Origin: Alloascoidea hylecoeti
Taxonomy: Eukaryota
Length of the DNA: 64,000 nt
Direction: 5' to 3'
Assembly: GCA_001600815.1 (NCBI GenBank)
Contig: BCKZ01000009.1
Location: forward strand, 150,194-214,193
Below the pieces are notes generated by a model. The model was not told the DNA's origin. It worked only from the letters and a program-made list of their open reading frames with translations, and ran no database searches. Each line of letters begins with the position of its first letter. Within the stretch, counting starts at the first letter, position 1. The position numbers and the translations under genes are program-made. Of this stretch, positions 14,042-52,316 are shown in pieces.

Positions 14042-14114
14042 ATTCCAATTATTTTCGGCCACAAGATGAACTAGATTTTGGGCCACCTTTCAAACTAAAT
14101 AATCGGCCATGTTG
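14042..14114 (+). repeat. Solo arm of the dispersed TCGGCCA sub-repeat element
   Basis: ATTTTCGGCCAC (14051), ATTTTGGGCCAC (14075) and AATCGGCCATGTTG (14101) at ~24-nt spacing; collinear with the arm at 52008-52075. Confidence 0.6.
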
Positions 14115-15022
14115 TGTCGGCTTCAGAGAAGAAATCCACAAAACTAGTAGGTAAAGGTTTGTGCGGTTCAAATTTAATAAAGATTCTAAATCAATTCTAT
14201 GGGAAAAAATACCTAAATAAAACAATCTTGTAAGTTATATCAAAAAGTGTAATTAAAGATAATCATAAGAGGGTTAACATTAAAAATGATCATCTTGAAG
14301 AGTAATTACAAAAGACATATAGAAAGAAATATGGGAATCATAAATCCATACATGACCAAACCTCTTAGTTATTAAAAAAATAACTACTTAATTTTAAGAT
14401 ATCAGAAAGATTCACAATCTTTTTTTGAGACCTAATTATAGGTAAATAAAATGAAATTAGTAGAAGTGTGTGTACTACATACCAATTTAAGATAAACATT
14501 GAATCCGGCGTAATAAGAATAAATAAAAATTCAGAAATAGCAAATATTATAGCACTAATGAAATGTAATTGTTACTGGAATGAAAGAAATAGCAGCCCAG
14601 TTAAATATCACCAAAAGGAAGGATGTGTGTATAATCAATAAATTGCAAAATATAATCATAATTTTATAAGTTTACAGCAGAAACTTGGACATGTTAGATC
14701 TAACACAGGATGTAAGCCTATGTTAATATTGTGAGGGAAAGTTATCATGAATCTACATGAGAAAATTATCAAAAAAACTCTTAGGTAGGTTAGATTAGAG
14801 AAAAGAGTGGTATTCTTCTATCTGTGTTTTATTCGAGTAAAAGATTGCTGCCCTTAGATAAAGCAAGAGGCACAATATTACAACATGAAGCTTGCTTTTC
14901 TTTTTTTATTACCACTTTTTGGTATAATTTTATTTTCAATTAATATTACTTTTAAATGTTCGTTATTATTGTCAATTTTACAAAACAGAGAAGAAGAGAA
15001 ATAGTAATAATATACGTTTATA

Positions 15023-15607
15023 TTAATTGACTATCCTTTTAAATTCAAAATCACCACTTCTTCCTCCTGCTTTTTTTAAAACTTTAACATCGCTTATCAC
15101 CATCTGCTTATCAACTGCTTTACACATGTCATAAACCGTCGCCAGAGATGACAAAACACCCATTATTGCTTCCATTTCAACTCCCGTCTTTCCATCGCAT
15201 TCAACTGTGCATGTGGATATCACTCGATTGTATTTGGAAACAATTAGTTCGTTTGTAATTCTGGTTACCGGGATAGGATGACAAAGGGGAATTATACTTG
15301 ATGTATTCTTAACTGCCATTATTCCAGCGATCCGAGCAACTCCAAGCACATCGCCTTTCTTCATTGTATTAGAATTGATAAGATTGGATACTACAGGGTT
15401 GCTGAATTGAATAAAGCCTTCTGCTGTTGCTGTTCGGTGTGTAATCTCTTTTTCACGAATGTCCACCATATGTGCTGATCCATCCTCTGTTATATGTGTC
15501 AATTTGTCCAATTTATTATTCTTATTATTATGTACAATACATGATGTGAATGATCTAACGCTATTCGTGAAAGATTTTGCTGATGGTAATAAGAGTCTAT
15601 ATCTCAT
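15023..15607 (-). CDS. moaC: Molybdenum cofactor biosynthesis protein C (MoaC, cPMP synthase) with a probable mitochondrial presequence
   Basis: LTH....G.AHMVDI, KKGDVL.VARIAGIMA.K.TS.IIPLCHP, GKTGVEMEA, YDMCKAVD and K.GGRSG motifs; R/S/L-rich N-terminus. Confidence 0.95.
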   Translation of the reverse strand: MRYRLLLPSAKSFTNSVRSFTSCIVHNNKNNKLDKLTHITEDGSAHMVDIREKEITHRTATAEGFIQFSNPVVSNLINSNTMKKGDVLGVARIAGIMAVKNTSSIIPLCHPIPVTRITNELIVSKYNRVISTCTVECDGKTGVEMEAIMGVLSSLATVYDMCKAVDKQMVISDVKVLKKAGGRSGDFEFKRIVN

Positions 15608-17126
15608 ATTTATAAAAAATATTTTGGTTGATGAATTCTTAAAAAATCGAGGAGGCTTTATCGGATTATCTAACCACCAACCATGATCATGGGCCGATTC
15701 ATTTTCTCAAGTTCTTCAACTTCACCATATTTTTCTTTTTTCACGCTTAGTAGGTTACTATGTATGTAGTAAGTCCTATTCTTTCTAATTGACCCTTATT
15801 AGCTCTCGAAAATATATTGGACTTTATTAGCTTCAAATAGAAAATTTTAAAACTTCTATTGCAAGCACTACAAAAACGAGAAAGTCATAGATGTAATCAA
15901 CCCTATTTTACCCATATATTCTGGTATTTTATAAGTTCTTGAAGTGTTCCCATATTTATATTATAAAAGGGGTCTTTTGACTAAATAACAATATTCAATA
16001 AAAAGACTTCTTAAGGGTTTGTATTTCGTCATTACGACAAAATTTAGAATCTCATCTTTGTTAAAAATTCTCAAACGACAACTTTAATCTCAATTGATGT
16101 ATTATACATAATAAATCGTAAACCACTATAAATACCATTCCGTCTTGTAATAAATGTGTATTCCCCATCAATTAATATATTTATGTAAGTAAATCCATAT
16201 TTCTTTAAAGCTGGTAGTTTGTTACTATTATATAGAACTTTATAATTACATCCGAAAATACAAAAATATATATAGCAATATTCACTTTTAATTTTTTCCT
16301 GTCTTACTCTTTATACTATGATTGCGAGGCTTAAAACTCATATGTTGCGAAATTAATTATTCTTAGAGGACGCTTATTTTCTATTTTTATACGAAACTAA
16401 GTATACACCCCATTGGTTTCATACAGTACAATATATATCTATTGTTTTCGCACACTCTAGAGTAGTACACGCAAAAAATAAGTGCTCACTAAAACCACCA
16501 TCAGCACCACAAATGAGTATTAATTCACTAGATATTCTGTATATATAAACTGCTAATCCTAATAAATTATTCTGTAAATTTTTATAAAGTTGTCTTTTTT
16601 TATTTCAAAGTTGGAAGGTACTTCTTTTTCGCTCAAATCCTATTCATCTCTACTTTGAGATGTTTTCCTCTAACCTGCACATCACTAACTACTGGATCTT
16701 CATTAAGTAACTTGGTCATGTATTTTATATTGCCTGTTTTAAGTCACTCCGGCCTCCAAAAGATCTGATGTTTTATAAGACTCTTTTGATTCATCTTTAT
16801 TTTAAAGTCATCTTGCGTATTTAATATTCTTCATCGAGCTTTAGAAAGTTATCATCTGGATATGGTGTGTTTGATTAAGAATTTCTCTAACCAGTAGAAA
16901 CAATCCTGAATGATGAATCAATATTAACAAATAAAGGTAATTAAATTACTTTGTAACTACTGTATATAAAAATATCATTATTATTTTTAATCTTGATTAT
17001 AACCTATTGCGAAATTTTAACTTTTTATTATAAATGATGGAAATTTATGTATGCGAGTCCCAATATATATTCTAATCTATATTAAATGATCTATAAAATA
17101 ATGTTGATAATTATATAGGATAGTAA

Positions 17127-18589
17127 TTATTTCAACAATTCGTCAATTACTTCTCCCCAAATTTTAGCACCTTTTTCAATTTGATCCAATTCCAAATAAC
17201 TAACACTTAACCTAACACTTTTTTTACCCCAATGTTTTTCATCTCCAGTAACTTCAAATTCATCACCATTCGCCAAAATAACACCACGTTCTGAACATTT
17301 CTTACATATAACTCGAGCATCTAAACCCAATGAATCAGGGATTGTAACCCATAAGAAATATCCACCATATCCACCTTCAACTAAAGTTCCTTTAGGAAGG
17401 TATTTATTTAAACATTCTTTTAAAAACGAGGATCTTTTTGAATAAGTATCTTTTAAATTTTCAATTATTGAATCTAATAAACCTTCTTTGATTAATGTAG
17501 CAACGATAAATGAATTTAACTGAGAGGGAGATCCACCTGATTTATTAGCTCCGCCAATTGCGAGCAATTCCGCTAGATAGGAAGTAGGGGTTTCTTGCCA
17601 TCCAACACGTAGCCCAGGACCAGCTAATTTTGAAAAGGTAAGATTAGAAATAGTGTTCCCTGGTGGGACCGGATATGAACTTTTTTCATTGGGTTCTGCA
17701 TATTTAATTGTATCAGCATCTAATGTCACAAACCTAGGAATTGGATGATTGAATGCAGTTAAATATGGTGGGGTTTCGTAGGCTAGTAAATCATAAACAT
17801 CGTCACTGATTATTAATATATCATGTTTTCTAGCTAAGTCGAGTAACTTTTTGCGAGTTTCTAGAGAGAAAACACCACCTCTTGGATTTGAGTAAGTTGG
17901 AACACAATACATCACATAGCGGTATACTTTTTTGGTAGGACGTGCTGGATCATCAATTGTATTGAAGGGGGCCCTACCTTTATTCCAAGTCCCTTGGTGG
18001 ATGTGATCTTTATCATCTTCTACCGGGAATTTCGGATCAGGTAAAGAATCGTAATATTCCAATCGATTGATAAGATATTCGAAATCGACAACTCCATTCT
18101 CTTCTTCATCAATTGCAGTCAACTTTCCACCAAATCCAGCATCATAGAAAGTGGCATTTATAAGATAGTAAGTGGGGGAGATGATGAAGGCTTGTTTAGT
18201 ATAAGTGTAAGGACAGGTGGTTTGTGCTAAGATGTTCATGATTCCATAACTAGCACCACCAGTTAAAACCAGACGATCACTACATTTACACAAAAGGGAA
18301 ATATTAGTATCAATTGCTTTGCTTTGTTAGTACATATAAATCAAGCAAATACTTACGGAGTAATACTTCCTTTGTCTAGGCCAAAAACCCTTCCGCTCCA
18401 ATCTGCGATTGTTGATCTCACCCATTTAGAGCCCAAATCTGAGCCGTATGTCAATGGATGTCTATCTTCCTCCAGGGTATCTCCAGGTCTTTCGGAAGAA
18501 AGCAAAATTGTTGAAGCTTTAAGAACCTCCGCTGAAGGAAGAAGCCTGTTTGTGGGGTGGCCACGGAAGAAATTTATGGATCCAGACAT
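17127..18589 (-). CDS. Class I PLP-dependent aminotransferase, YER152C-like; exons 18589-18357 and 18279-17127
   Basis: INFFRGHP, PLTYG.D.G, LTGGAS, ISDDVYD and TFSKLAGPGLRVGW motifs. GTAAGT..TACTAAT..TAG intron joins two ORFs in frame. Confidence 0.9.
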
Positions 18590-18867
18590 TATCTACAGTA
18601 TAAAGATGAGAAGGTTTGATTTTCCGGTTTTAGTGAAGTTATATCCGGTCCGAATGGTGTTTCAGCTCGTGACACATCGGATGCATACCGGAACCTTATA
18701 TGCATACTAAGATACGAAGATACGAGAACGTTATCCGGCAGCTGATAGCGTGCGGCATAACAAACCGCCATATAAAAATTGTATAAAGTCTCTTTTGAAA
18801 ATCTCTTGAAGATCCTATAATCACTTCTTATTCTTTTGAAAAAATAGTTGGAATCTAAACATATAAC

Positions 18868-19491
18868 ATGGTCAACTTTGACTGGACTATCCTGCTTCCA
18901 GTAGCATTCAAAAACTCTCTCTTCTATCATTTCATTTCACCAGATGAAGCAAAAGACATTGCCCAAGAACTGTGGTTTCCAATAATACTTGTTCTTGGCT
19001 CTTTTTTCAAAATATTTCTTTCCTTAATGCATAAAAGATTATTTAAGAAAAATGGAGGGAAACTTGACAACATCAAAGAAAAATGTGAGCATGCAGTTAA
19101 TTTCATCAATCTAAGCACCAGAGCTGTTGGATCCTCTGGAGTGAATATCATTGGTACCGGATATGCCATCTACGAAGTATATAATGCCTATATTAAATTC
19201 TTGGAGGATTATCCTGCCCAGTGTTTAACAGAAGGTTCTTCTGAAATTACTTGTCCTTACAGTGTGCATCATAAATTAATGGCTACAATGGTGACCGAAA
19301 TTGTGGTCAAGCTCCTTCTTCCTTTATTGCATATTATTGATTTCCTTTTGATTATGACCGAAACAGATGATGAAGCTGAACAGAAGACAGAAGTCCCAGA
19401 TCTCAATAAGAGTGTTGGATCTTCCAACTTAAGAGAACAGTTAAGAGAGTTGTACAAGCGAAAAGAGGATGAGAAGAAAAAGAACGCATGA
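18868..19491 (+). CDS. Unknown 207-aa membrane protein with a charged C-terminal helix and KKxx end
   Basis: ATG-initiated ORF, ~3 hydrophobic segments, ends KKKNA. Confidence 0.7.
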   Translation: MVNFDWTILLPVAFKNSLFYHFISPDEAKDIAQELWFPIILVLGSFFKIFLSLMHKRLFKKNGGKLDNIKEKCEHAVNFINLSTRAVGSSGVNIIGTGYAIYEVYNAYIKFLEDYPAQCLTEGSSEITCPYSVHHKLMATMVTEIVVKLLLPLLHIIDFLLIMTETDDEAEQKTEVPDLNKSVGSSNLREQLRELYKRKEDEKKKNA

Positions 19492-19973
19492 GTTTATTAT
19501 GTATTAGATATATAGACATATAGATATTAATATTTGTTTGAATTTACCATTTTCAGTTAATTTTTTCCCATTAAACCTGACGTTTTGAGCATCCACGCGT
19601 ATCTAAGTGTGCAAGAATATATGTCGATAAAAAATAAGAACTTTAAACAAGAATGTCTGTAATATGGAAAACACAATAATCAATAACTTAATCAAAAATG
19701 GAAAATTCTCTGGAACGGATCTATATCACGACTCTTATGATTCTTAGATGAAATGATAACTTGTTATAAATTAAAGATTTCTCTTGTCTAGACCAAAACT
19801 TGATTTATTCAAAATCTCTATTAAAAGTGTACTTTTCATATCTGTAATCCGTAAATTTAGGGAATTTTCTCCCGGGAATGTCAGTCCCATACGACAAGAT
19901 ATAAAGTTACCCTACTCTCCCAACTCCAAACAGAAACTTTTCAACCTTCAACGATTCTCGTGGATTACTATAA

Positions 19974-27186: not shown

Positions 27187-27230
<44 letters not shown>

Positions 27231-28256
27231 GTGGAGATTTATCAGTCATTGTAGAGATAGAATCTGAGATTGAAATTTGATCAGAATTATTATTATCAAT
27301 TTCTAAACCAGGTACAAAACATTTAATTCCAAGATTTACAGGTGGTTTATATAATAATAAAGTTGAACCTCTAATAACACCTTTTAATAATCTAAAATCA
27401 TTTTTTTCAGAATTTGAAGATTCACCCCAGGTTGAAAATTGAGCAGTTCCTCTATTAACCCATCCTTCTTTTAATATTGCTCTATCAAAATTTTCAGGGG
27501 ATATATCATCTTCAGATTGAATTCTTATTGGGCCTGTAAGTTTAATATGATTAAAAGAATTATTCAATTCATTTATATTTGTAGAAGTTGAAGTGATTGA
27601 TAAAGGACTTTGGGCACGTTCAGGAGCAGAAACTTTTATATCTTCAATTTTCTCTGGTGTAGGTGTATTCGTATCACTTGTTGGAGCAACAATTATAGCA
27701 GGTTTAGTACTAATATTAATATTAGAATTTACTGGACCTTCAATCATGGTGCTACCAGAGATTGAATGAGCTGGATGTTGAATAAGGTTAGTTGCAAAGT
27801 CGTCATTTTGAGATATACTGGGAAACTTACTTTCATATCTCAATGAGGCGTTGGATTCAGTTGGGGATTGGACCACGGATCTAAAGTGATAAAAAAAATG
27901 GTTAGAACTTAGAAAAAGAAGAAAAAAAAAAAAAAAAAAAAAACATACCTGATACTTGGAGCTCTATCGGAGTTTCTTGCAGAAGTAGCCAAGGAGTATG
28001 CTGCTTGTTGTTGTTGAATTTGTTGGATCTGAACTGGAGTAGGCTGTCTTGGGGGGACAGGCAATGCTGGTGAAGGAGGTTGTTGGGTCAGCTGGGATCT
28101 ATGTGTTGGAGGTGGTTCTTGGACAATAGCCAAAGAAGCATTGGAGTGAGATTTCTTTGGGCGATAAGAGCCATTTTCGGTAGATAGGAAAGAATCCTTG
28201 GAAGTGTTCTCCTGCTTTGAACCCAGCCTGATTTTACCTCTCGCGGACCACTTCAT
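21694..28256 (-). CDS. BEM2: Rho GTPase-activating protein BEM2 (RasGEF-like, PH and RhoGAP domains); exons 28256-27949 and 27880-21694
   Basis: C-terminal RhoGAP (FGVPL..VCEREG..LP.VV...L.EIELRGL.E.GIYR; AGCFKLYLRELP), RasGEF-like segments, ~2160 aa. GTATGT..TTCTAAC..TAG intron. Confidence 0.9.
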
Positions 28257-28848
28257 TTGGAGATTGGAAAGATGTTAGGGGAGGATTGCGAGAAGAAAAA
28301 GCTAAAAGCAGCGATGAAGCTATATAATTGTAGAGTTAGTCTCAGATGTGAATGTCGGACGGGTGATCATGAGCAGGTGGTTGATTCGGGAGGAATCAGG
28401 GACGGGGAAATTGGACTCACATTGACGAAAGCGCAAGATACGGTAGTACAGGAAGTTGTAGTATAATAGTAGTACAGGCAGTGAGACAGGAGGACGAAAT
28501 TGGAGAAGAAGAAGAAAGCATCAAAAACTCATCAGATGAAAATTTAAACAAAGTAGATTTTAAATGAAGTTTTCCGGCATACATATAATTAAGTATTAAG
28601 TTCATGAATATTTTTAATTCCAATGTGATTTTAATGGAATGGCCTTGACATGATGATAATTGCTCTTCCGCAACCTTATTAGCCCATCCGCCTTGTATTC
28701 CAGTGCTGTTTGCACGGACGTGCGAACCGTCTCCCTTGGGGCCGGCCATCGACGCGTGTGCAGGGCAGCCAAACCGCGAGGCCCGCAGAAACAGAGGAAC
28801 CACAAAATATATGGCAGCTGCGTATGCGTGTCGCTTATTCTTAATTGT

Positions 28849-28903
28849 GCCAGCTGCGTATCGCCAGCTGCGTATCGCCAGCTGCGTATCGCCAGCTGCA
28901 TAC
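28849..28903. repeat. 14-bp tandem repeat (GCCAGCTGCGTATC)x~4 in the BEM2/PET100 divergent promoter
   Basis: Three perfect units and one variant; a related copy at 28813-28825. Confidence 0.9.
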
Positions 28904-29168
28904 GGTTATAGATGGATAGTCAGCAGGGAAAAAAAAGATATTTATAGACAGACCGCCTGTTTCAGGAGTCAAAATCCTTTGTTCAGCCTCGGATGCTCTT
29001 CGCCTACGCTATGGTCGGTGCTGATGAGTGGCATTTGGTGCAACTGGCCGCACACGTTACGTAATGTGCCGCCCATTCTTACGTAATGGCTCCTCCCACA
29101 TCCAACCACCCGTCGGCTATGACTGCTCGGCAGCACTCCACCGGCCTCCACCACCGGCCTCCACAACA

Positions 29169-29568
29169 ATGTCACGGCTGTTTCCCACATTCTCCCTGAG
29201 GAATATATCCAGGTCTCAGCTTGAGATCTTCAGAGTATGCACCCTGCCTGTAACCTCCACCCGACCTCCACCTGCTCTAACTGCCCTTATAGTTCATCTT
29301 CTATCTGACAACCCCCATTGCTGTAATGTATTATGTTGGTATCGACACCGATAAAAAATTCAATGTCCCTGGCTTTTGGCCTGACCCAGAAACTTTGAAC
29401 AAAGTCCCGAAAGAGCGCCATGAAATAAAAGCTGAGTTGGAAAGAATGAGACAGGCAAGACTTGCAAAAAGAGCAAGATTGGAAGCAAAGGCAAAGGAAT
29501 TAGGTATCGATTTAGATAATGACGATGAATCGGATATTATTGATAAGTTTGGGCTTTCGAAAAAATGA
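29169..29568 (+). CDS. PET100: Cytochrome c oxidase assembly chaperone PET100; exons 29169-29234 and 29293-29568
   Basis: Spliced product ..SRSQLEIFRFIFYLTTPIAVMYYVGIDTDKKFNVPGFWPDP.. matches the Pet100 family; GTATGC..CTCTAAC..TAG intron. Confidence 0.93.
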
Positions 29569-39346: not shown

Positions 39347-39805
39347 TTGCGAACTAATTTCCTTCTAGATCTGTTTCATACATTGATGAATGCAACTGAA
39401 AGAAAAAAATAAAAAAAAAAAAAACACCTGGTAGCTAGCTAGTGATATTCTTTTTTGGATATTTTGTGTAAATTAAATCTACGTATACATTGTAGTCATA
39501 TTCAATGATATTTTGCCTTTTTTATTAGTACTTTCTTTATATGTTTTATATGTTTCTACGTAATACCCAAGATCAACCAGATCCTGTCTCATAATTTCCA
39601 AAAGGATTTCTTTCTCTCTTTTATATGATCAGCTTGAACAAACATTTTTAATTTTTAATTTTTAATTTTTTTTGAAAGTAAGTAGTCATGATCTTTTTTA
39701 ACTTACCTCATATTTTTCCTCCAAGTTTTCTGTTCTAGTTATGGGAATTTTGATTGATTGTAAAATTAGTTAGACGCATCACGTGTTGACTATTTAATTT
39801 AAAAA

Positions 39806-39828
39806 GTGGCCGAAAATAAGTAGATTGA
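39806..39828 (-). repeat. Partial arm of the dispersed TCGGCCA element
   Basis: GTGGCCGAAAATAAGTAGATTGA resembles the outer end of the 52-kb arms. Confidence 0.5.
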
Positions 39829-39917
39829 TAGTATGGATTTCATTTCTCAACTTACCCTCCCATAAAAAAAATATAGATGGCTTTGATGTATTAAAAGTAT
39901 TGCTAAACACTCTGGAA

Positions 39918-40572
39918 ATGCCGAAACAAATCTCTGTAGATACATTTCTACGAAACTCAATAAGGTTACTTCAAGCAAGACCAACAACGGTAAGTTTATC
40001 TTTTTTTTTTTTTTCTTTCAAATAAATGAGTTTGTATGTTTTACTAACACAAAAATGCCAATGACAAATAGACACACGTTTCAATAACATATGGAACTAT
40101 AAAACGATCAGAGAATAAAATAACGGCATCTACGAATGAAAGTAAAGATAAGAATGAAAAATCAGGATATTTCAATATTAAGACATATGACCCTGTATCT
40201 GGCCTTTGTTACACAATCCGCTTAAGAAAACATAAAGAAGTCTCTAGAGTATTATCTGGTCTAGGTCCACATCAAGTTCAATTCTCAAAAAAAGTTGAAA
40301 AACCATTAAACAAAAAAGCTACTAAAACAGGCGAGAATAAAACCGAAGGAAATGAAGCTAAGGATACTAAGAAGAAAAACGTAGAATATGAAACTGTCGT
40401 TACCTCAGAATTGGGAATGAGTGCAATTATGGCAAATGTGGTTATACCAGTGAGTGAATCTTCACCTTCAATTACCAATTTAGCACCATCTACTCCTACC
40501 ACAAAAACTACTACTCAACCACAAACTGGTAAAACGGGTGGTAAAAAAAATAAGAAGAAGAATAAGAAGTAA
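39918..40572 (+). CDS. SRP21: Signal recognition particle subunit SRP21 (SRP9 family); exons 39918-39989 and 40072-40572
   Basis: VDTFLRNSIRLLQARP.TTHVSITY..KTYDP.SG.C...R..K.KEVSR.LS.LGP and K-rich tail; GTAAGT..TACTAAC..TAG intron. Missed by the ORF track. Confidence 0.88.
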
Positions 40573-41050
40573 AAAGATAAACAGCTTTTATGATATTTTA
40601 ATTTCATAGTATTTATATTTTACATTATTGATTGATTGATTGAATGATTGACCTATCGAATAGCCATTTTTTACTAAATATACATGCTAAGAAATAGTAT
40701 CATTCATATTTCAATTGTAACAATTTGTAAAGGATAATATAAGACCGATGCTTATTTTAGATAATTCTCCATCAATATAATATAAATAGTTGTATTTTTA
40801 AAAAGTAACATAATTCGTCAAATGAATAAAACAAGAACCGCTAATATTAAATATTTTTAAGATATATTTATTCAGAATCGACAACAATATATACAATAAT
40901 AGTAAAAAAGGTAAAGAAAATGAATACGACACAAACAGAATAGCAAAAGAAAAAACCAGCACATAAAATACCATTAAACATCAATTGCAACGAAAAAACA
41001 TCAAAATATTTTCACAAAAGAGCGAAATAAAATAGTAATAAATTATAAAA

Positions 41051-42715
41051 TCAATGACCTTCATTTTGAATATGATCTGAATTCAAATTCTGTGTTGAAT
41101 GATTTAGCATTTCTTCATATTGTCCTTCAGAGACATGTGACGGTTGAGATATGGGAGAAGTCACATCACTATTTGAACCATCGTAAATCGGCTTCCGATT
41201 TGCCAATCCTAGAATTTTATCGGTCCCTGTAATATGAGAAGTAGAAAATTTCTTTTGTATTATTGAATCCTTTTGAGTATGTGAGTGGTCATCGGAGAAT
41301 TGTGATCCTTGTGATGAAGATTCCTGAGTTAATCCATTTTGAGTATTTGATGCGGGATCTAATTCGGCGGATGTTGATGATGTTGATGTTGAGGTTACTA
41401 GTCGAAGGCCGTGAGGAACTAGTGGTGAATTTCGTATTATTGAAGATGAGTCTGAGTTTGATATCGTTGAAGATCCATGATTAGTCCTGGTTGTTGACGG
41501 TGTTGGGACTGAAGATTGTGATTTATAGCTTGGTGGAAGTGAATTTATAGAATGTGGAGCATCTGGAATCGTTTGTGTAGGGGGTGTTGAAGCGTGAAAC
41601 GATGTGTCGGTAACTATGGTGCTTTGATATTGTGGATGCGTTGATGCCGAGTTATTTGGGTCTAATAAACTTGTTCTTTCATTGATATTTATTCTTTCGA
41701 CATCATTAAATGAAGGAGGCCGACTTTGTAAACCTTGTTCACCTCTTTCTAATAAAACATCTCTTTCCTCTTCGCCATACTTTGGTGGAGGACCTAACGT
41801 TCCTCGAATAGGGGCAAACCCCCATTTTTTAACATTTGCCTCAATAAATACAAATCCACCTTGACCCAAGTTTACATGAACGGTACATGGGCCACTGGCA
41901 CCAATTGTTGGGAAAACATTATATCTGACACCACGGACAGATTCACCTAAACGTCTTCCATTTCGAGTGAAAAATATCGTTCCTTGTCGGGATCTATACC
42001 CAATTCCAATAACGTCACCTTTATAAAATTTAGGATATATAGGGGTGACAGGGAAAGGGCGGTTGACCCTTCTTGACCCATCTGAATCATAAGATAAAGA
42101 ATATCTGTGTCTACCTGGTAATCTGAAAGTAGGGTATGGCTTAGTTGTAAGACCTATACTTATTGCTGTATCAGCATCTTCCGGAACATCAAATATCTTA
42201 GCTTCGAAATAATATGTTTCGTTCTGACGGGGAATAGGTAAGTTAGTCTGGACGCAACAAGGATTATTGTCAAAAAACTGGATTTCAGTGCGTGCTTGGA
42301 CGAGTACTGCAGCAGAAGTGTAGTCTGGTTCGAACTGCCACGCGGAAACACCTTGTTCTCTTATCCTAAGAAACTGAGATAACCCTAGATCTGTTGGTTC
42401 ACTGCACGGGGGATGAGTTTGTTGAAAGGCCTTTGCCCTTAAGTACATGACCTGTGCGGATGGGTCCATTTGGTCCATTGCTAGTTCTCTCTCTTCATCA
42501 TCATAATCCGAAACCTCATCAAAGGATGCAGGTTCACCAGCAGGGAGAAACAATCTATCAGAGCCAAACACAAGCATGTAAACACTAAATAGGCCCAAAA
42601 CCAGGAGGAAAGTGGTGATACCAGATACCAAACCAACTAGCAAAGACACGTTTATATCAGGCAAAGTAGGCAAATCTGGGATATCTGGGCCATCGTATGA
42701 AGGATCCTTCAGCAT
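41051..42715 (-). CDS. SPRY-domain Rsp5 adaptor, SSH4/EAR1 family
   Basis: N-terminal TM, VQTNLPIP...E.YYFE.KI, IGL.TKPYP.FRLPGRHRYS, GDVIGIGYR and FIEANVKKWG.AP; PPxY motifs. Confidence 0.9.
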   Translation of the reverse strand: MLKDPSYDGPDIPDLPTLPDINVSLLVGLVSGITTFLLVLGLFSVYMLVFGSDRLFLPAGEPASFDEVSDYDDEERELAMDQMDPSAQVMYLRAKAFQQTHPPCSEPTDLGLSQFLRIREQGVSAWQFEPDYTSAAVLVQARTEIQFFDNNPCCVQTNLPIPRQNETYYFEAKIFDVPEDADTAISIGLTTKPYPTFRLPGRHRYSLSYDSDGSRRVNRPFPVTPIYPKFYKGDVIGIGYRSRQGTIFFTRNGRRLGESVRGVRYNVFPTIGASGPCTVHVNLGQGGFVFIEANVKKWGFAPIRGTLGPPPKYGEEERDVLLERGEQGLQSRPPSFNDVERININERTSLLDPNNSASTHPQYQSTIVTDTSFHASTPPTQTIPDAPHSINSLPPSYKSQSSVPTPSTTRTNHGSSTISNSDSSSIIRNSPLVPHGLRLVTSTSTSSTSAELDPASNTQNGLTQESSSQGSQFSDDHSHTQKDSIIQKKFSTSHITGTDKILGLANRKPIYDGSNSDVTSPISQPSHVSEGQYEEMLNHSTQNLNSDHIQNEGH

Positions 42716-42996
42716 TTTGCAATTGATGGTTTTTGTGTAGCAACAAAGACTTTTGTATTAGAGTTGAGCTTTGAATGAGCTTGGGAAGCTAATTAGTATA
42801 AAAGACGTTCTCAGAAGTACACACCCGGGTACCACAAGTACGCAGACAACCGGACGCAGTTTGATTTTTCTCTGTATCTGTAAAAATTAATTTAAATTTG
42901 TCGTGTGTATCATTGTACTTCATTTCACTCCACTCTCCTGTCTTCCCGTCCCTCACTTCTCCCATTTTCGCCACCCCACGTCCACTGCATCTGCTG

Positions 42997-45000
42997 ATGC
43001 TCTCATCCGTCTTGAAATCGCAGGTTTCTTCTAGAGTCCCCTCTAAGCTGGCTACGGCCTGTTTAGTAACATCACTCATATCTTGCGCATCATCCCACAG
43101 GTCTATTTCACGAGTCTCACGACCGGTTGTCGCACCCCATTATTTTGCAGAATCAGTTATACACAAGCAGAACTCCCTTCTTTTGCGATGGGACAGTTCA
43201 ACGGGGAACGCATTCCCAAATAGAGGTTTCTGCTCATCTGCAGTTAAACTCCGTGATCGGTTAAACGGAAATTACTTTATATCGTCACATGAAGCGGATT
43301 TTAATGACAAATACAACCACAAGTTCCTTACAGCTCTACACGACGAAACACATGTTATCCCTTATTCCAGTGGATTTCCCCCAATTGGGCCGACTTCATC
43401 CCGTGCTAGTAAATCAAGTTTAAAATCCGCTGTACCTGTGACAAACGCTACCAAGTTAAGTCTTTTCCAGTCCGTGGGTAAGAAATACAACCTTTTACTC
43501 TTTGGGTTAGATTCAACTTCCTCGGCCCAAAATTCCACAGCCGATAAAATTTCAGCTTTTTTTTCTTGGATTATTTTTGGAAATGTCGTCTGGGTCCTAC
43601 TTGGAACCACTACTTTTTTATCAATTATCATATATGCACTCAATACTGTCGTTGCGCAAGATTTATCTGCACGCTGGATAGGTAATATAATAAGTAAAGG
43701 CATGGCTTTAAACATTTCCTACTCCGATGCTGGAGTTGAGACTTGGAAAGATGGAATGATTAGTTTTAAGAAAATTGCTTTATCAAATGAAGATGAACAA
43801 AAAAATAAGGATTGGGATGGTACAAAACTAGAACTAACTATTGATACTGTCAAGGTTAAATTGTCTCTCAATAGGTGGATCAATGGGCAGGGTTTGGTTG
43901 AAATGGCTGAAATTAAGGGAGTTCGGGGGTTTGTAGATTATTCAGGCTATAATAAGGATAAATCTAATGATCAGGAACAGGATTTTCATTCTGTTAGTAA
44001 CTTTGATATTGAAAACTTCAAAATTGAGGATGTTAATATTGATGTTTTCCATCCAAAAGTGCTTACCAAAACAAATTCAGAATCAGAGCCAGAGTCAATT
44101 AAATTGTGTATCTTTAGCAGTGAAATTCGTGGTTTACGAAAGAGCTGGATTATTCTCGATTTACTTAATGCTGAAAACATATCTGGCTCAATTGATGGTT
44201 CTTTATTCACCCTTCATAAACGCCGTCATAAACTAGCATATCTTTATGATATTTCCGAAGAGTCAAATCCGTGGAAAACAATCACACAAATAAGATTAGA
44301 TGGTATAGATATCAGTAATTGGCATAACTGGCTGAGTAGTGGCGATGATCCCAATTCAAATCCATTAAGTTGGATTGTCGAAGGTAAGGCAGGAATTACT
44401 GCTGATATTATGTTGCCAAATGATGATGAAAATGTGAAACTGGGTGATTTAGCCAGACATGTCTTACAGAATCTACAACTTAGGTATTTCGAGACCATTG
44501 AAGAAATGAAGAGAAATTATAGAGATAATAAGCCATTATTAGAACCATCCTGTGAAAAAGATTTATCTAATAAAGAACCATCATTAGAACTATCTACCGC
44601 TAAAGGTTCAAAATATCTTGTTGTCGATTTAAAAGTTCAATTAAGTGATGCAAAGGCAGTTCTTACCAGCGACATCCCAAGGGATATTAATAATCAACCA
44701 TTGCTAACAAGGCAAGATCTCTTATCTCTTGTTTTATTCATCAATCGAAGTAGATCAATCCCGGTAATGTCCCTCAGATTAGTTCAAAGTATCGATCAAT
44801 TATATAACAATACATCTTTTAGTGATACTGATATAAGAAATGCGGTAGTTTTCGAGTTATTTGAAAGCTTACAAAATCTAGCTGTGGAAGATGAAGCTAG
44901 GTATTTGAATGAAAAAAAAAATGAAAAAACTGCAGAAGTTTTTACTCCCACAACATTTGGGGCACAGTTATTGTTGGTCCTATTGGGTGTATTTGCATAA
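42997..45000 (+). CDS. Mitochondrial distribution and morphology protein, MDM31/MDM32 family
   Basis: D.ISAFFSW...GN..W..LGTTTF.S......NTV.AQ and LLNAE.ISGS.D.SLFTLHKR motifs; presequence-like N-terminus from ATG 42997. Confidence 0.9.
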   Translation: MLSSVLKSQVSSRVPSKLATACLVTSLISCASSHRSISRVSRPVVAPHYFAESVIHKQNSLLLRWDSSTGNAFPNRGFCSSAVKLRDRLNGNYFISSHEADFNDKYNHKFLTALHDETHVIPYSSGFPPIGPTSSRASKSSLKSAVPVTNATKLSLFQSVGKKYNLLLFGLDSTSSAQNSTADKISAFFSWIIFGNVVWVLLGTTTFLSIIIYALNTVVAQDLSARWIGNIISKGMALNISYSDAGVETWKDGMISFKKIALSNEDEQKNKDWDGTKLELTIDTVKVKLSLNRWINGQGLVEMAEIKGVRGFVDYSGYNKDKSNDQEQDFHSVSNFDIENFKIEDVNIDVFHPKVLTKTNSESEPESIKLCIFSSEIRGLRKSWIILDLLNAENISGSIDGSLFTLHKRRHKLAYLYDISEESNPWKTITQIRLDGIDISNWHNWLSSGDDPNSNPLSWIVEGKAGITADIMLPNDDENVKLGDLARHVLQNLQLRYFETIEEMKRNYRDNKPLLEPSCEKDLSNKEPSLELSTAKGSKYLVVDLKVQLSDAKAVLTSDIPRDINNQPLLTRQDLLSLVLFINRSRSIPVMSLRLVQSIDQLYNNTSFSDTDIRNAVVFELFESLQNLAVEDEARYLNEKKNEKTAEVFTPTTFGAQLLLVLLGVFA

Positions 45001-45608
45001 TCTGATGCAAATTACTATCAAATTGAAATGTTACTGTTAAATCGCTTTCAATATTTGATTCCGACTCTTTATCACCGATTTCATATGATTGTCCTTAATG
45101 ATGTGATATTATTACTTTCAGTTCATTTATTCTATATTGCATTAAATTGTACCCGTCTTTTATTTAATCTATGTTTGTACAGTTGAATGTCAAAAGTACA
45201 ACATCTTGTTATTTCAGCAGGTTCTTTTTTTTTTGTTGTTGTTTTTTAATTACTACATGATGATATTATCTACATGGTTGGATTTTCTTTGGTTTTTGTT
45301 TTCTAATGAATTTTTTTTAGTCGAACTGGTGCACATGGTGTATGGATTATGGATTATGCTAAAATATAGGCTATATTTGCAAATGTTCAAGATTTTCTAT
45401 AAAGTTTACAGGATATATACGTAAGATGATTTGAATTTGAAATAGTATGCTACATAACCTGTATATATGATGTGCAAAATTACTATGTTAATATTATTGT
45501 TATAAATTTATAGTATTCTTTTATACCTTAAAATATATAAGTCTAGATCTGTATTTTATTGTCACTTCGCATATCCCTCATATTAATAACACTTATACCG
45601 ATAATGAT

Positions 45609-45654
45609 GTGGCCGAAAATCAGTGATAGGAATGGCCGATATTAAGTAAAATGA
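45609..45654 (-). repeat. Solo arm of the dispersed TCGGCCA element
   Basis: GTGGCCGAAAATCAGTGATAGGAATGGCCGATATTAAGTAAAATGA aligns with the right arm 52144-52188, including the TTAAGTAAAAT end. Confidence 0.65.
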
Positions 45655-46052
45655 CGGTATATGATATGAGTTGATTCACACTCTTACCAAAAGATAATAC
45701 CTTCTGATAACAAAACACATTTACCAAATGCTTATATACTTTTTTCCAATCTTTTATTCAATATTAATTTTTCCGTGTAATGATATGTTTTGATTATATT
45801 ACGTCTATGTATAAGTAAACGAATGTTGTTGTACTAATTAATTATTGAAAATATATGGAAACACATTATAAATATTAAACTATCCCGCTTCCAAATGCAT
45901 CAGTCTTCCAACTGGGGTATATAGGCATCGATAAGAGTATATCATCAATTCATAAGATATACTGTGATAATATAAAAATAAAAATATAAAATTTAAAAGC
46001 AACATCAAAAATTAAAAAAATGTGGTATCAAGATATATTGACTTTAATACTT

Positions 46053-47192
46053 TCACTTACAATAAAACAGCTTGATAATTTTCTTAAATTGTTTTTCATT
46101 AAGGTGAAATTTTTCTCTGCTTTCAGTTAAAATACCAAATTTAACTTTAGACATTTTTTCACCTTTTTCGAAATTATCCGACCAAAGATGTTCACCTCCA
46201 ATTAATTGAAAGATTTTACCTTGAATAATTTCGGCTTCCAATCCTTTCTTTTTCATTAGTTCACTGTATTTCCAAATCAAAATGTGACCTAAAAGAGATA
46301 AGGCGGTAATATTTGGTTTTCCAGTTAATCCAATAAAATCTGGTATTTGAGCAAAAACGAGTTTTACAGTCTCTTTATTTAAAGAACGTAAGAATAAACG
46401 ACCACCACATGCTGATCGAATAGCAATCATACTTAATTGTTTCTTTAAAATTTTATCTCTTAACTTGTCTTGATTTTGTTTTAAAATTACAATGAGGTTC
46501 TCATAATCAAACCCGGTTGGAACTTGTATTTTACTAACTGTGGCATGCATTGAATGCTCTAATTCCAACTCTGTATCAGCACCGATATCTGTAGTAGTAC
46601 CAACTTCTGTAGCATTATCATCAAAATCTTCAAATTCGTGGGTGATTCTAGAACTACTCTTGCCAGATTCCAAAAGTGTAACATTTTTCAGGTTCTTACT
46701 TAAAACATCAATCTCTGAATCAGAAGCAGAATCTGTAGAAGAAACATCACCATCACAATCGACTGTAGGATGATTATGATAGAAAAGACGTGGTTGAATA
46801 ACATGTGATCCCCTATTGAAGTCATCATAATCTTTAACTTGAGCTTGAGTAAATGTTGACTTATTGGAATGGACATCATTAACGTTCTTTTTTGCCTTCA
46901 AGAAGGACTGATAAGGAGTAGACAGCTTTCCGGTTGATGTTGAAGCAGATGTCTCCACCCCATCAGTATCTGAATACACATTGGAAAATTCAGGTTTATC
47001 ATTATCATTATCATCATCATCATCATCGTCGTCGTCGTCGTCCAATTTATCAGTCTCATATTCTGAGGATTCTACCTCACTGGTGGATACTGAAGCAAGA
47101 TCATACTCACTGGGGGTTTCTGGGAGAGACCAATCTGAATCAGATAAACTCATGACCTTCTCTAGCAAAGAAGAAGGTGAATTCGTGGACAT
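46053..47192 (-). CDS. Unknown protein with an acidic Ser/Asp-rich N-terminal two-thirds and a basic helical C-terminal domain
   Basis: ~379-aa ORF from ATG 47192; no family recognised. Confidence 0.7.
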   Translation of the reverse strand: MSTNSPSSLLEKVMSLSDSDWSLPETPSEYDLASVSTSEVESSEYETDKLDDDDDDDDDDDNDNDKPEFSNVYSDTDGVETSASTSTGKLSTPYQSFLKAKKNVNDVHSNKSTFTQAQVKDYDDFNRGSHVIQPRLFYHNHPTVDCDGDVSSTDSASDSEIDVLSKNLKNVTLLESGKSSSRITHEFEDFDDNATEVGTTTDIGADTELELEHSMHATVSKIQVPTGFDYENLIVILKQNQDKLRDKILKKQLSMIAIRSACGGRLFLRSLNKETVKLVFAQIPDFIGLTGKPNITALSLLGHILIWKYSELMKKKGLEAEIIQGKIFQLIGGEHLWSDNFEKGEKMSKVKFGILTESREKFHLNEKQFKKIIKLFYCK

Positions 47193-47434
47193 TATGTAAA
47201 GATTATTTATAATTAGATGGTCAAGCAGCAATTAACGTTGGGATAAGAAAAAAGAGGGATACGATAATAGATAACACCTGCAGGGGCAAGGCTTACAACC
47301 ATACTATAAGCTATAGCTAGGTAGTATAAGTTAGATCATCGATACATCATTCTCTTTCGTTTCAACTTCACAAAATATGTTTTATTTCTTTTATATATAT
47401 ATCGTTTTATATTTTATGTAAATATGTTTCAAAT

Positions 47435-48779
<1,345 letters not shown>

Positions 48780-48959
48780 CTGGACGTTGTTGGTAAAAGT
48801 TTTGGTGTTGTAAAACAATTTAAACTTTTAAATTCCATACAAGTAATATACACCAATGAAAGATATTTCAATTGTTTCTGTTAAAAAGAATGTACTCTAC
48901 GATATTTATATAAGTAAAAATATAATAAGTATTAATGCTTATATATAAAATTTAATCTA

Positions 48960-49706
48960 TCATGAATATTGTTCTAAGAGTGGATCATTATAACGAACAT
49001 AGGCACCCCGAAGGTCCGAACCTTCACCTTTCAACGCCAAATTAGCCAAAACTGTACCTGGGACAACAGGATCGAGTAATTGGTTATTTTTCTTCAAATC
49101 CAAAAATCTGGAATGGCCGGCTCCCATACCTTCAGCATGCTTTTCTCTGATATCGTCTTGCATGGACGTATTCACAACGCCAGGCGCAACACTAATGGTG
49201 AAAATATCCGGTTCCTCGGCAGCTATAGACAGTGCAAGGTGGTTTATAGCTGCTTTGGTCGACCCATAAAGACCCCACCCAAGGTATCCTTTTGTAGAGG
49301 CGCCGGATGAAACGTAAACTATTCTACCTTTAGATTTTCTTAAATGTGGAATGGCCTTAGCAGATAAATCAACGACTGAAAAGAAGTTGATGTCAAAAGC
49401 TTCCTTCCACTCTTCCACAGAAGCATTGGCGACCTGATCCACCTGTCCCAAGACTCCCGCATTGAACACAATGGCATCCAACTTTCCCTGCTCTCCAATG
49501 ACTTTATCCAGGAGAGTAGCTGCCGTTTTCGAGTCAGCTACATCACCAGTGACATAGTCGAAATTGGCATGTTTTGCTTTGAGTGTCTCCAAAGAAGCTG
49601 CACTTCGCGACACACCGTAAACGAAGGTGGAAGGGTCTGCCAACAATTTCTGAACGGTTGCAAGCCCAATTCCCCGGGAGGCACCTGTGACAATTATCAC
49701 GCTCAT
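48960..49706 (-). CDS. Short-chain dehydrogenase/reductase (YIR035C/IRC24-like)
   Basis: TGASRGIG, NAG, SSGA, YGSTK and APGVV.T.MQ motifs; ATG at 49706. Confidence 0.92.
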   Translation of the reverse strand: MSVIIVTGASRGIGLATVQKLLADPSTFVYGVSRSAASLETLKAKHANFDYVTGDVADSKTAATLLDKVIGEQGKLDAIVFNAGVLGQVDQVANASVEEWKEAFDINFFSVVDLSAKAIPHLRKSKGRIVYVSSGASTKGYLGWGLYGSTKAAINHLALSIAAEEPDIFTISVAPGVVNTSMQDDIREKHAEGMGAGHSRFLDLKKNNQLLDPVVPGTVLANLALKGEGSDLRGAYVRYNDPLLEQYS

Positions 49707-50007
49707 GCTGAATAACGATGATCCGCATGAAACGAATCGGGAAATGGCAGATGTGTTGAAGTGCGGGTAACTCAGCGTGCTTTTCGCGATAACACAGTTT
49801 ATTAAATTTATTGGAGTGCCAACATACAACAAACAAACTCCAAAATTATTAAAAGACACTGCTGTTCCTTCAACCCTTTTTCTCCCAGGAAAACACCCCT
49901 GTTTTGCTTGTAGCCCCTTAGATTCTTGATCTCCTCAACTCCAACGGAACATTTCATCTTATTACCACCTAGTCTGTCTCGCTATTATTACTGCTACTTT
50001 TACAAAA

Positions 50008-51912
50008 ATGGATCCTTCCCGAATATACACACCTCCAAGGAATAACCCCACCTCGTATTCAAGCCCTCCTCCGACTCTTGCTTCCAACCTTACCCCGGCC
50101 TTTAATTCCGTTTCGTTACAATCCCCTAGGTCGGAATCAAAAAGAAAACTTAATGTTGATTCACCTTCTTTTAAACCATCCTTCGGTAATGGCTTTTCTA
50201 ATTTTACTAAAAGCTCCCCAAAATTGGCTGATATTCACACCTTCATACCACAATCCTTACGATTGAAAGGTGATAAGAATGATAAAAGTGACAAAAATTC
50301 CCAGTTTGGCTCTCCAAAGACAAAACAAAAGGCAAAGACTTTTAATGTTGAAACCCCAGCCTTCACCCCTCAATCCAGTTCAACCAATCTTACTAACATT
50401 TCATTTAATTCAGCTACGAACTCTGGTAGGTCCGCGTCACCCTCTCTTGTGAGTGCAGACGCAAATCTGCGTTCAAATATCACCTCCTCTTCCAGGGCTT
50501 CTACTCCAGCAATCAATGCAAACGACTATCAGAATTCATATATTCAGTATAACTCATCGGACATGTATTATCCCCAACAATCTTATCCTCTACAATATCA
50601 TTTATATGCACCACATCCCACCCAATTCTTGAACTTGAAGCCGTATCAAAGGTCGATTCAGAACTTATTTATTCCCGATGATCTAAGAGAGGATTTACAA
50701 CGGAAATCAGAAGCTATATTACAAGTTATTCCTGGTTCTAAACTTCCGGATCATGTACATACATATCACACTTTGGTCCCATTAGATACAAGTCTTGAAA
50801 AGAAGAGTAATATCTTTGGATTCTTAACTTCTTTATATAAAGCTTTTTCAAATGTTGATGGTAAAACATATGCTTTAAGAAGACTTGAAGGTTTCAGATT
50901 AACAAATGAAAAAGCAATTAATACTGTTCAAGCTTGGAAAGCAATTTGTAGTGCCAATGTTGTTGATTTACACGAAGCATTTACAAGTGTTGCTTTTGGT
51001 GATAGTTCATTAATTTGTGTTTATGATTATTTTCCAAATTCATCAACTTTATATGATTTACATTATGCGAAAAAATCACATACTCATAAAAAGACAATGA
51101 TTCAAGAAGATGTTATTTGGTCATATATTGTTCAAATCAACAATGCAATTAATATCATACATCAAGGTGGTCTAGCTGCTAGAGCCTTGAGTCCGACCAA
51201 GATCATTGTAACAAGTAAGAATAGAATTCGTCTTAGTAGTTGTGGTATTTTGGATATTTTACAATATTCGGATAGTGATGATAATATTGAAGAATTACAA
51301 CAAGAAGATTTTATGAAGTTCGGAAGACTAATCCTTGAATTAGCCCTCCTTAATACAGGACCAGCAATACAATCAAAGATCAATGCAGCAAGTGGTAATA
51401 TTCAAGCCATTGTTCAACTTTTACCATATTCAGCATCATTAAAAGAAGTTTTACAATATCTATCTCTACCTTCAACAATTAAGAAATCAAGTACTGATTT
51501 AGCAGCAAAAATGGCCCCACAAATAATGAATGTTTTAAATAAACTACAATACTCTAAAGACTTTACTGAATCAGCTTTATCAACAGAATTAGAAAATAGC
51601 CGTCTTGTACGTTTATTAACCAAAATGGGTATAATTAATGAACGTCCTGAATTTGATCATGATCCTTCTTGGTCTGAAAGTGGTGATAGATATTTGATCA
51701 AGTTATTTAGAGATTATGTTTTCCATCAAGAAGATGAATTTGGTAAACCTGTTATAAATATGACATATATTTTAAAACAATTGAATAAATTAGATGCTGG
51801 ACTTAATGAGAAAATAATGTTAGTTTCTAGAGATGAACAAAGTTGTTTGATTGTATCATATAAAGAAATTAAAGACTGTATGGAAAAGGCATTTGGTGAT
51901 CTGAGTAGATGA
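50008..51912 (+). CDS. PAN3: PAN2-PAN3 deadenylase subunit PAN3
   Basis: PLQYHLYAP, LFIPDDLREDLQRK, pseudokinase body, ELENSRLVRLL.K...INERPE....WSE.GDRY..KLFRDYVFHQ. Confidence 0.95.
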   Translation: MDPSRIYTPPRNNPTSYSSPPPTLASNLTPAFNSVSLQSPRSESKRKLNVDSPSFKPSFGNGFSNFTKSSPKLADIHTFIPQSLRLKGDKNDKSDKNSQFGSPKTKQKAKTFNVETPAFTPQSSSTNLTNISFNSATNSGRSASPSLVSADANLRSNITSSSRASTPAINANDYQNSYIQYNSSDMYYPQQSYPLQYHLYAPHPTQFLNLKPYQRSIQNLFIPDDLREDLQRKSEAILQVIPGSKLPDHVHTYHTLVPLDTSLEKKSNIFGFLTSLYKAFSNVDGKTYALRRLEGFRLTNEKAINTVQAWKAICSANVVDLHEAFTSVAFGDSSLICVYDYFPNSSTLYDLHYAKKSHTHKKTMIQEDVIWSYIVQINNAINIIHQGGLAARALSPTKIIVTSKNRIRLSSCGILDILQYSDSDDNIEELQQEDFMKFGRLILELALLNTGPAIQSKINAASGNIQAIVQLLPYSASLKEVLQYLSLPSTIKKSSTDLAAKMAPQIMNVLNKLQYSKDFTESALSTELENSRLVRLLTKMGIINERPEFDHDPSWSESGDRYLIKLFRDYVFHQEDEFGKPVINMTYILKQLNKLDAGLNEKIMLVSRDEQSCLIVSYKEIKDCMEKAFGDLSR

Positions 51913-52007
51913 GTTGTATAGATAAATAAATCTAATAAACATTATAATAGAATGATTGCTTCGTTTGTATTCATGGTGCATAAAAAATGAATTCTATTAT
52001 GCAATGA

Positions 52008-52186
52008 TTTCACTTACTTTCGGCCATTCTAGTTACTAATTATCAGACATCCCCACAACAAATGTTCGGCCAAGTTGGCTTTCGAAGTTGTCCCATATCA
52101 ACGAATTATACAGACAATAATGGAGCCGAAAGTTAGTTGTGGGATGGCGGATAATTAATGATCAACATGGCCTAAATTAAGTAAAA
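52008..52186. mobile_element. ~180-bp MITE/foldback-like element with ~63-bp imperfect inverted arms (identity as a TE not proven)
   Basis: 52008-52070 vs reverse complement of 52125-52186: 48/63 identical by hand alignment; related arms elsewhere in the window. Confidence 0.55.
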
Positions 52187-52316
52187 TATATGTTAATAAG
52201 CATACCTGCATACATCTTTGTTTGTGTATGCATATTCGCATTCTTCTCAATTATATGAATTCTAACCGCAAGATATATTGATAATTAGCAAAAATATACA
52301 TTATCATTATAAGAAA

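Follow-up and report, generated by a model that had tools for sequence, protein, structure and literature searches.

Arms of phased 17-nt units in intergenic DNA of Alloascoidea hylecoeti are probably the ends of a short non-coding DNA transposon family

The ends of phage Mu, Tn7 and Drosophila FB consist of several direct transposase-binding sites of about 20 bp, placed about two helical turns apart. DNA transposons are scarce in budding yeasts, MITEs especially so. Among fungal pogo/Fot1-type elements, Trem, Aft1 and Tan1 have terminal inverted repeats (TIRs) of 42–49 bp which "consist of two 17 bp direct repeats" (PMC2836289). The pogo/Fot1-type elements, among them Trem A to H of Paracoccidioides, Aft1, Tan1, Pot2 and Fot1, belong to the IS630-Tc1-mariner group and are about 1.85–2.3 kb long, TA-flanked and equipped with an HTH/CENP-B/DDD transposase (PMC2836289). 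In a 2014 survey, mRover1, a hAT-derived MITE of Lachancea waltii, is termed the first MITE reported in yeasts; the survey gives it an average length of 356 bp, TIRs of 18–20 bp, 8-bp target duplications, a repeated 6-nt motif and known autonomous parents (PMC4316626). Dici, an IS630-Tc1-mariner family found in Diutina catenulata and other fungi, is described as carrying three genes, as always having a TA duplication and as young and active, while its fungal relatives have long TIRs of 50–187 bp (PMC13469147).

The module that we describe here would resemble Dici in being a DNA transposon family of a budding yeast, and it differs from Dici in that its copies are old and non-coding and have no clear duplication. 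The analysis concerns one stretch of 64,000 nt, called the window below, in which the recurrence of the TCGGCCA module is real. A 17-nt unit, YACTWAWTWTCGGCCAY, is common to five arms, which occupy four intergenic loci (14.0, 39.8, 45.6 and 52.0/52.2 kb) and in which it stands in one to three direct copies, with a phase of 23–24 nt, behind a shared outer end. The features are as follows.

52007..52187, no strand: whole inverted-repeat element, two-armed and non-coding, 181 bp long, from inverted repeats, hairpin fold and paralog breakpoints.
52007..52073, plus strand: left arm of this element, with the outer 4 nt and units at 52011–52027, 52034–52050 and 52057–52073 (24.0, 15.8 and 18.6 bits), 23-nt phase, from nhmmer and unit scores.
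52120..52187, minus strand: right arm of this element, with the outer 4 nt at 52184–52187, units at 52167–52183 and 52144–52160 and a third near 52120–52138 that has a 1-nt indel (19.0, 19.5 and 11.6 bits), from unit scores.
14042..14110, plus strand: solo arm with units at 14046–14062, 14070–14086 and 14094–14110 (22.7, 17.1 and 16.0 bits), 24-nt phase, convergent ORFs on either side, from unit scores.
45609..45652, minus strand: solo arm with outer unit 45632–45648 and inner unit 45609–45625 (22.1 and 26.0 bits), 23-nt phase, convergent ORFs on either side, from unit scores.
39806..39826, minus strand: lone outer unit at 39806–39822 (25.2 bits) with a variant outer end, convergent ORFs on either side, from the unit score.

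Could a short GC-rich word simply have recurred by chance in this AT-rich intergenic DNA? Copies that are few in number and diverged would agree with this, and when each arm in turn was left out of the nhmmer training set, the 14.0-kb arm was recovered weakly, in two pieces with E-values of 0.035 and 0.053. However, the left-out arm was the best match outside the training set in 5/5 cases, and the other four returned at E-values no higher than 1.5e-3 (52-kb left arm 2e-8, 52-kb right arm 6.6e-7, 45.6-kb arm 1.9e-5, 39.8-kb arm 1.5e-3). TTCGGCCA occurs 5 times in the window versus 0.60 expected, and 5 was reached in 0/100 dinucleotide shuffles. The five arms of the original prediction are all present at the places given. 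The phase is constant as well, and independent paralogs occur in three data sets (see below). Chance is thus hardly credible as an explanation. The heptamer TCGGCCA itself is present 8 times in the window, 7 of them within arms; the eighth lies at the start codon of ORF 10124–12508.

The spacing of 23–24 nt that had been predicted for the cores is what the arms have: the unit-to-unit distances are 24 and 24 nt at 14.0 kb, 23 nt at 45.6 kb, 23 and 23 nt in the left arm at 52 kb, and 23 nt in the right arm. The predicted outer end, ATTT(T/C)ACTTA, is exact in 3/5 arms (45.6 kb and both arms at 52 kb) and is found as a variant in the arms at 14.0 and 39.8 kb. A degenerate candidate arm at 2459–2500, put forward along with the others, did not survive: its E-values in nhmmer are 13 and 7.2, and it has no unit match of at least 9 bits.

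Between arms, unit 1 is identical at 138/170 positions (81%) and unit 2 at 64/102 (63%), whereas spacer 1 agrees at 15/60 (25%) and spacer 2 at 11/36 (31%), chance identity being 28%; since the limits of the units were set on conserved blocks, the choice itself accounts for part of the difference. The cores are therefore better kept than the spacers, as had been supposed, and the 6-nt spacers are at chance level even when both arms of the 52-kb element are compared with each other. Judged from this pattern of sequence conservation, the 17-nt units look like kept, putative protein-binding sites. In transposon ends with multiple sites, the units are kept and the spacers diverge. The kept units and chance-level spacers could equally reflect selection on the sites at their present location. 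The idea that the CGG-containing core is the site of a zinc-cluster transcription factor was considered and dropped.

The 181-bp element at 52 kb sits 95 nt past the stop of a Pan3-like ORF and 130 nt ahead of the ATG of ORF 52317–53204. (The best named relative of the Pan3 of this yeast is just 46% identical to it.) The inverted pair that had been predicted here consists of 47 nt that are 77% complementary and a further 19 nt that are 84% complementary, and the single-stranded fold has an energy of −33.3 kcal/mol (z −5.8), which was equalled in 0/200 shuffles. The element thus has the form by which a MITE is recognized, namely terminal inverted repeats enclosing a short non-coding element. 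This copy is whole yet old. For the three solo arms at 14.0, 39.8 and 45.6 kb, partner arms were sought and none were found, and the 39.8-kb arm is the most reduced relic of the set.

The search for further copies covered contigs from three sequencing data sets for this species (X1, X3 and X4), at a match of at least 80%. At least 7 to 10 additional single-copy loci match the 52-kb arms at this level; the right arm is represented by at least 7 records, the left by at least 2–3. The opposite arm of the same element cannot explain these matches, because about 10/40 positions differ between the two, which is under the 80% cut-off. In X1, the matching contigs embed the arm in long unrelated flanks; three examples, of 2192, 2111 and 4665 nt, have 5–9 mismatches and a depth of 19.7–23.7, against a single-copy depth of 21.1. 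The contigs stop matching exactly at 52007 and at 52187/52188: the loose ends in X1 fall at 52007 (2 records), 52187 (3) and 52188 (4), with an inner side at 52147–52151 (7), and X3 and X4 have the same pattern. The right-arm paralogs, from at least 7 contigs, span 52147/50/51 to 52187/8, that is, the outer 37–41 nt alone. X3 and X4, which are near-identical strains with patchy cover at the arms, have no listed difference there. Since the paralogs all lose the match at the same outer bases, the module is a dispersed family with fixed termini, and since they are all 80–90% alike, none is young. Some contigs join 52028 or 52059 straight to 52126, a faint sign of further two-armed copies whose middle is shorter, the shorter side of these joints being just 22–34 nt. 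A set of metagenome matches to a 20-nt outer-unit pattern was put aside as chance: none of the 50 loci scores above 18.0 bits on the arm profile (the window's own arms score 27–62 bits), the matches extend little past the 20-nt pattern, and the contigs are unrelated and mostly GC-richer.

The fixed termini bear also on the proposal that the arms are a host cis-element, in which arrays of 17-nt sites, bound by an oligomeric host protein, would start replication, stop forks or transcription, or mark a boundary where genes converge. The constant phase of 23–24 nt would suit such arrays, as would units that are kept while the spacers are fully randomised, also among solo arms of different loci; most loci, besides, are single arms with no partner. 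The paralogs, however, are alike in the spacers as well as in the units, at 80% or more, and share the same end base, which argues for copying and not for independent sites, and one copy has its two arms in a neat palindrome. In the window, no further copies were found: non-training unit matches of at least 13 bits number 2, both in ORFs, where shuffles expect 2.1, so that lone units elsewhere are not above chance. As to position, the arm loci are all intergenic (4/4, P 0.016) and 3/4 are flanked by convergent ORFs. The original prediction pointed to the placement of the 14- and 45.6-kb copies between convergent genes, and they are so placed. This placement would speak for an origin or boundary element; the bias itself, given that the loci are intergenic, is not significant (P = 0.13). 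We regard a host cis-element as rather unlikely; its arrays may have been seeded by a transposon and afterwards kept.

What do the boundaries of the 52-kb element tell about the way it was inserted? No target-site duplication was found there: within 3 nt of the termini, direct repeats at the boundaries reach at most 2–3 nt, and for symmetric boundaries the best flank match is 2 nt. The 8-nt flanks agree at 3/8 positions and the 5-nt flanks at 3/5 at best. The right end has TA, the left end GA; T precedes the terminal A in 2/5 arm tips versus about 1.7 expected by chance, and the A at 52188 continues in 4/7 paralogous contigs. As the arms themselves are 77% alike, the missing duplication could be due to decay. 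LTRs end in TG...CA, and an LTR insertion is further recognized by a primer-binding site and a 5-bp duplication. A by-product of a retroelement, namely a tiny LTR that was copied in snap-back or fold-back form and inserted by integrase, is very improbable here, since the fixed termini read ATTTYAC...GTRAAAT, the 5-bp duplication is absent at the 52-kb element, and the three phased direct repeats per arm would be left unexplained. The tRNA scan of the window was likewise empty, with 0 matches. The whole window has 0 Rfam matches at gathering score. A transposase domain, HTH/CENP-B/DDD included, was sought in all 21 closed ORFs of 150 aa or longer in the window, to which the open-ended ORF 58173–63998 does not belong, and none was found.

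Taken together, we consider that the module probably represents the ends of a short non-coding cut-and-paste DNA transposon family, MITE- or foldback-like, of this AT-rich, deep-branching budding yeast. A reading as transposon ends fits best because of the two-armed copy, the fixed termini of the paralogs, the contrast of units and spacers, and the layout known from fungal ends. Against a transposon family count the 3/4 loci that are partnerless single arms, as well as the absence of a target-site duplication and of a transposase domain in the scanned ORFs. Single arms without a partner are unusual in a young MITE family. The original prediction had spoken of ends of a high-copy DNA transposon or MITE family; of this, the transposon ends are supported by the fixed termini and the two-armed copy, whereas the roughly 7–10 further loci that can be counted do not show a "high-copy" family, and neither target-site duplication nor transposase came to light.

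We infer transposition, binding by a transposase and the parent superfamily. Each end would present two or three direct 17-nt units behind a fixed 4-nt tip, the units being the probable binding sites of the family's transposase. At each end, several protomers would bind next to one another and bring both ends together for excision. The arms at 14.0, 39.8 and 45.6 kb would be one-ended relics left by deletion and decay, and such relics may persist in intergenic DNA, mainly behind the 3′ ends of genes, since an insertion is nearly harmless at such places. The pogo-derived CENP-B-like proteins of fission yeast offer a parallel for a more speculative and rather improbable idea, namely that the arrays, formerly transposon ends, now serve as docking sites for a host protein of transposase descent. 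Selection would then keep the units at the places where convergent genes have their 3′ ends, and the oligomer bound there could provide an origin, stop replication forks or block transcription.

The kind of element is most likely uncommon yet not new. As a multi-copy family whose ends are made of phased 17-nt sites, it would add to the evidence that the genome of this deep-branching yeast is unusually rich in cut-and-paste elements, and it offers a clean DNA site for a transposase, or a transposase-derived protein, that recognises the unit. Annotation, too, gains an explanation for an intergenic motif that recurs and could otherwise be mistaken for a regulatory or origin signal.

How, then, does the family compare with the known systems? 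Elements of the hAT group have 8-bp target-site duplications and short TIRs of 5–28 bp. The 52-kb element does not fit this description, as its 8-nt flanks agree at 3/8 positions and the arms are 44–67 nt long. mRover1 is like the present element in being a short, non-coding, two-armed element of a budding yeast with DNA secondary structure, and further in its subterminal repeats of a short motif and its truncated copies with one TIR. Unlike mRover1, the element is 181 bp long, has arms of 44–67 nt in which 17-nt units are phased, and lacks both an 8-bp duplication and a known parent. The likeness to Mu, Tn7 and FB is one of working principle alone, the hosts and enzymes being unrelated. From the pogo/Fot1-type elements, the present element differs in being non-coding, in its third, inner unit, in having no clear TA duplication and in lying in a window where no transposase was found. 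The outer 44 nt, however, are built as 4 + 17 + 6 + 17 and so contain two 17-nt units, as do the pogo/Fot1-type ends, a match of architecture alone. The way in which these 44 nt are built suggests a putative parent of pogo/Fot1 type, within IS630-Tc1-mariner.

The five arms, arrays bearing TCGGCCA, all lie where the original prediction placed them. TTCGGCCA occurs five times in the window against an expectation of 0.60, a count reached by none of 100 shuffles, and seven of the eight copies of TCGGCCA in the window fall inside arms. Alignment of the arms extends the repeat to a 17-nt unit, YACTWAWTWTCGGCCAY, whose orientation relative to the outer tip is constant. The units are disposed as follows.

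Arms in the window, with the start-to-start spacing of their units
14.0 kb, plus strand: arm of three units, spacing 24 and 24 nt
39.8 kb, minus strand: arm of one unit
45.6 kb, minus strand: arm of two units, spacing 23 nt
52007-52073, plus strand: left arm of the 52-kb copy, three units, spacing 23 and 23 nt
52120-52187, minus strand: right arm of the 52-kb copy, three units, the innermost with a 1-nt indel, spacing 23 nt

These distances bear out the proposed phasing of about 23-24 nt. In a leave-one-out profile test, each arm was withheld in turn and sought as the best match outside the training set. All five were recovered in this way, four with E-values of 2e-8, 6.6e-7, 1.9e-5 and 1.5e-3 and the 14-kb arm weakly (E 0.035 and 0.053); with E 13 and 7.2, a degenerate candidate predicted at 2459-2500 falls short of significance. 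The window holds 13 unit-matrix matches of at least 13 bits, versus a shuffle mean of 2.1 (maximum 5; 20 shuffles). Eleven are training units, and the remaining two (10119 and 43903), both inside ORFs, are the number that chance gives. The window therefore has only these five arms, distributed over four loci. That their recurrence is itself a product of chance is hardly credible.

Between arms, unit 1, the outermost, is 81% identical (138/170), unit 2 63% (64/102) and the outer 4 nt 75%, while the 6-nt spacers stand at 25% and 31% against 28% by chance; part of this contrast follows from the choice of conserved blocks as units. The cores had been predicted to be better kept than the spacers, and the contrast is present even when the left and right arms of the single 52-kb element are compared. 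With the spacers at pure chance and the phase constant, the feature conserved is a series of sites with fixed spacing. Multi-site transposon ends, for example those of Mu and Tn7, show the same behavior. A host protein-binding array would give the same pattern, and this speaks in favor of a host cis-element, possibly exapted from transposon ends, a reading that we regard as less likely.

The 52-kb copy (52007-52187, 181 bp) is complete as an element. Complementarity between its arms spans 47 nt (77%) and another 19 nt (84%), and as single-stranded DNA it folds into one long hairpin (-33.3 kcal/mol, z -5.8) that none of 200 shuffles equals. It has no Rfam match. An origin of the element by retroelement snap-back seems very unlikely. 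The 14.0-, 39.8- and 45.6-kb loci are single arms, for which profile and inverted-repeat searches found no partner in their intergenic regions.

Contigs of four public sequencing runs, among them X1, the metagenome X3 and X4, a further sample of the species, were compared with 39500-52500 at 80% likeness. X1 placed 25 records there, 14 of them less than 90% alike. In three examples, the arm match lies mid-contig and the rest of the contig is unrelated to the window; their depth, 19.7-23.7, equals the single-copy depth of 21.1.

Example contigs of run X1 matching the 52-kb arms
2192 nt: 52004-52046, 5 mismatches
2111 nt: 52009-52071, 9 mismatches
4665 nt: 52147-52187, 6 mismatches

Among the loose ends listed for X1, the outer ones fall at 52007 (two records, before) and at 52187 (three) and 52188 (four, both behind), and the inner ones at 52147 (two), 52150 (three) and 52151 (two); X3 and X4 repeat these positions. 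No comparable pile-up is found among the listed loose ends at the 39.8- and 45.6-kb arms. Judging from the arm alignment, these matches cannot stem from the opposite arm of the element itself, because about 10 of 40 positions differ (manual count), below the 80% cut-off. Thus, the right arm's outer 37-41 nt recur at seven or more other loci, and the left arm at a minimum of two or three. Similarity of all these paralogs to the arms stops at the same base, and the arms belong to a dispersed family with fixed ends. Some contigs link 52028 or 52059 straight to 52126, a weak hint of two-armed copies with a shorter middle, since the joints have only 22-34 nt on their shorter side. Scanning metagenome contigs with the outer unit gave 50 loci, all chance matches. 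Elsewhere, a stretch of 77 nt in the SPRY-domain ORF (41817-41893) finds a match with 12 mismatches in three runs, in a different contig each time; the genome therefore has a paralogous or repeated segment at another place.

On balance, we favor an old family of MITE- or foldback-like DNA transposons with multiple copies, its ends being arrays of a putative 17-nt transposase-binding unit and its parent possibly of pogo/Fot1 type. The window would then hold a single complete copy besides three relics with one end each. Of the transposon or MITE ends originally suggested, the whole two-armed copy and the dispersed fixed-end paralogs speak in support; against them, the 52-kb copy, with boundaries shifted by up to 3 nt, has no target-site duplication of more than 2-3 nt, nor one of 8 nt (the flanks agree at just 3/8), and none of the window's 21 closed ORFs of at least 150 aa, a set outside which the open-ended ORF 58173-63998 falls, has a transposase domain. 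The ORFs 52317-53204 (295 aa, beginning 130 nt past the element), 46053-47192 (379 aa) and 18868-19491 (207 aa) have no Pfam match with an E-value of 0.01 or below.

All four loci are in intergenic DNA (P 0.016; intergenic share of the window 36%), and three of the four lie between convergent ORFs. The latter placement has P 0.13 given intergenic location and lends an origin or boundary role of a host cis-element no real support; it fits insertions surviving behind 3′ ends. The boldest form of the cis-element reading, in which the arms would serve a domesticated transposase-type protein as a landing pad where convergent genes end, is improbable. The 2.5-kb convergent region of the 14-kb arm also holds a short-period tandem repeat (13104-13286) that reads as a 60-aa ORF of LFYFI-type pentapeptides.

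The window has a low GC content (26-37% per 4 kb) and carries ordinary fungal housekeeping genes, among others Pan3, MDM31/32, Vps41, COG3, KRE6/SKN1, a G-alpha subunit and MoaC. The best named relative of the Pan3-like protein (50008-51912), from Pachysolen, is only 46% identical; the host is thus a budding yeast, or closely allied to one, that lacks near relatives with sequences in the protein collection searched. The next matches, Lipomycetaceae and other fungi, reach 40-50%, with lichen fungi and Pneumocystis mixed into the top matches; the lineage is thinly covered by protein collections. A very GC-rich repetitive run (37010-37060) is located at the 5′ end of the otherwise AT-rich COG3-like ORF. 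A GC-rich island at 28000-29500 (44-56% per 250 nt versus 12-36% around it), within a 3.5-kb gap between ORFs, holds only short overlapping ORFs of up to 115 aa and has no Rfam match; a non-coding RNA gene is one possible explanation, decayed or foreign DNA another.

For fungal elements of the pogo/Fot1 type (Trem, Aft1, Tan1), a TA duplication is described, along with TIRs measuring 42-49 bp, which "consist of two 17 bp direct repeats" (PMC2836289). In the arms, the tip and two units with the spacer between them add up to 44 nt, and this stretch is just the part common to the paralogs. The group-defining TA is not clear at the window arms, since the 52-kb copy ends in TA on the right and GA on the left, T stands at the tip of only two of five arms, and only four of seven paralogs run on through the A at 52188. 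MITEs are described as rare in budding yeasts, mRover1 of Lachancea being called the first (PMC4316626), and an active Tc1-mariner-type family was described recently in Diutina (PMC13469147). The landing pad for a domesticated transposase-type protein would, if true, be the novel case; the arm family is a further example of an already known element type.
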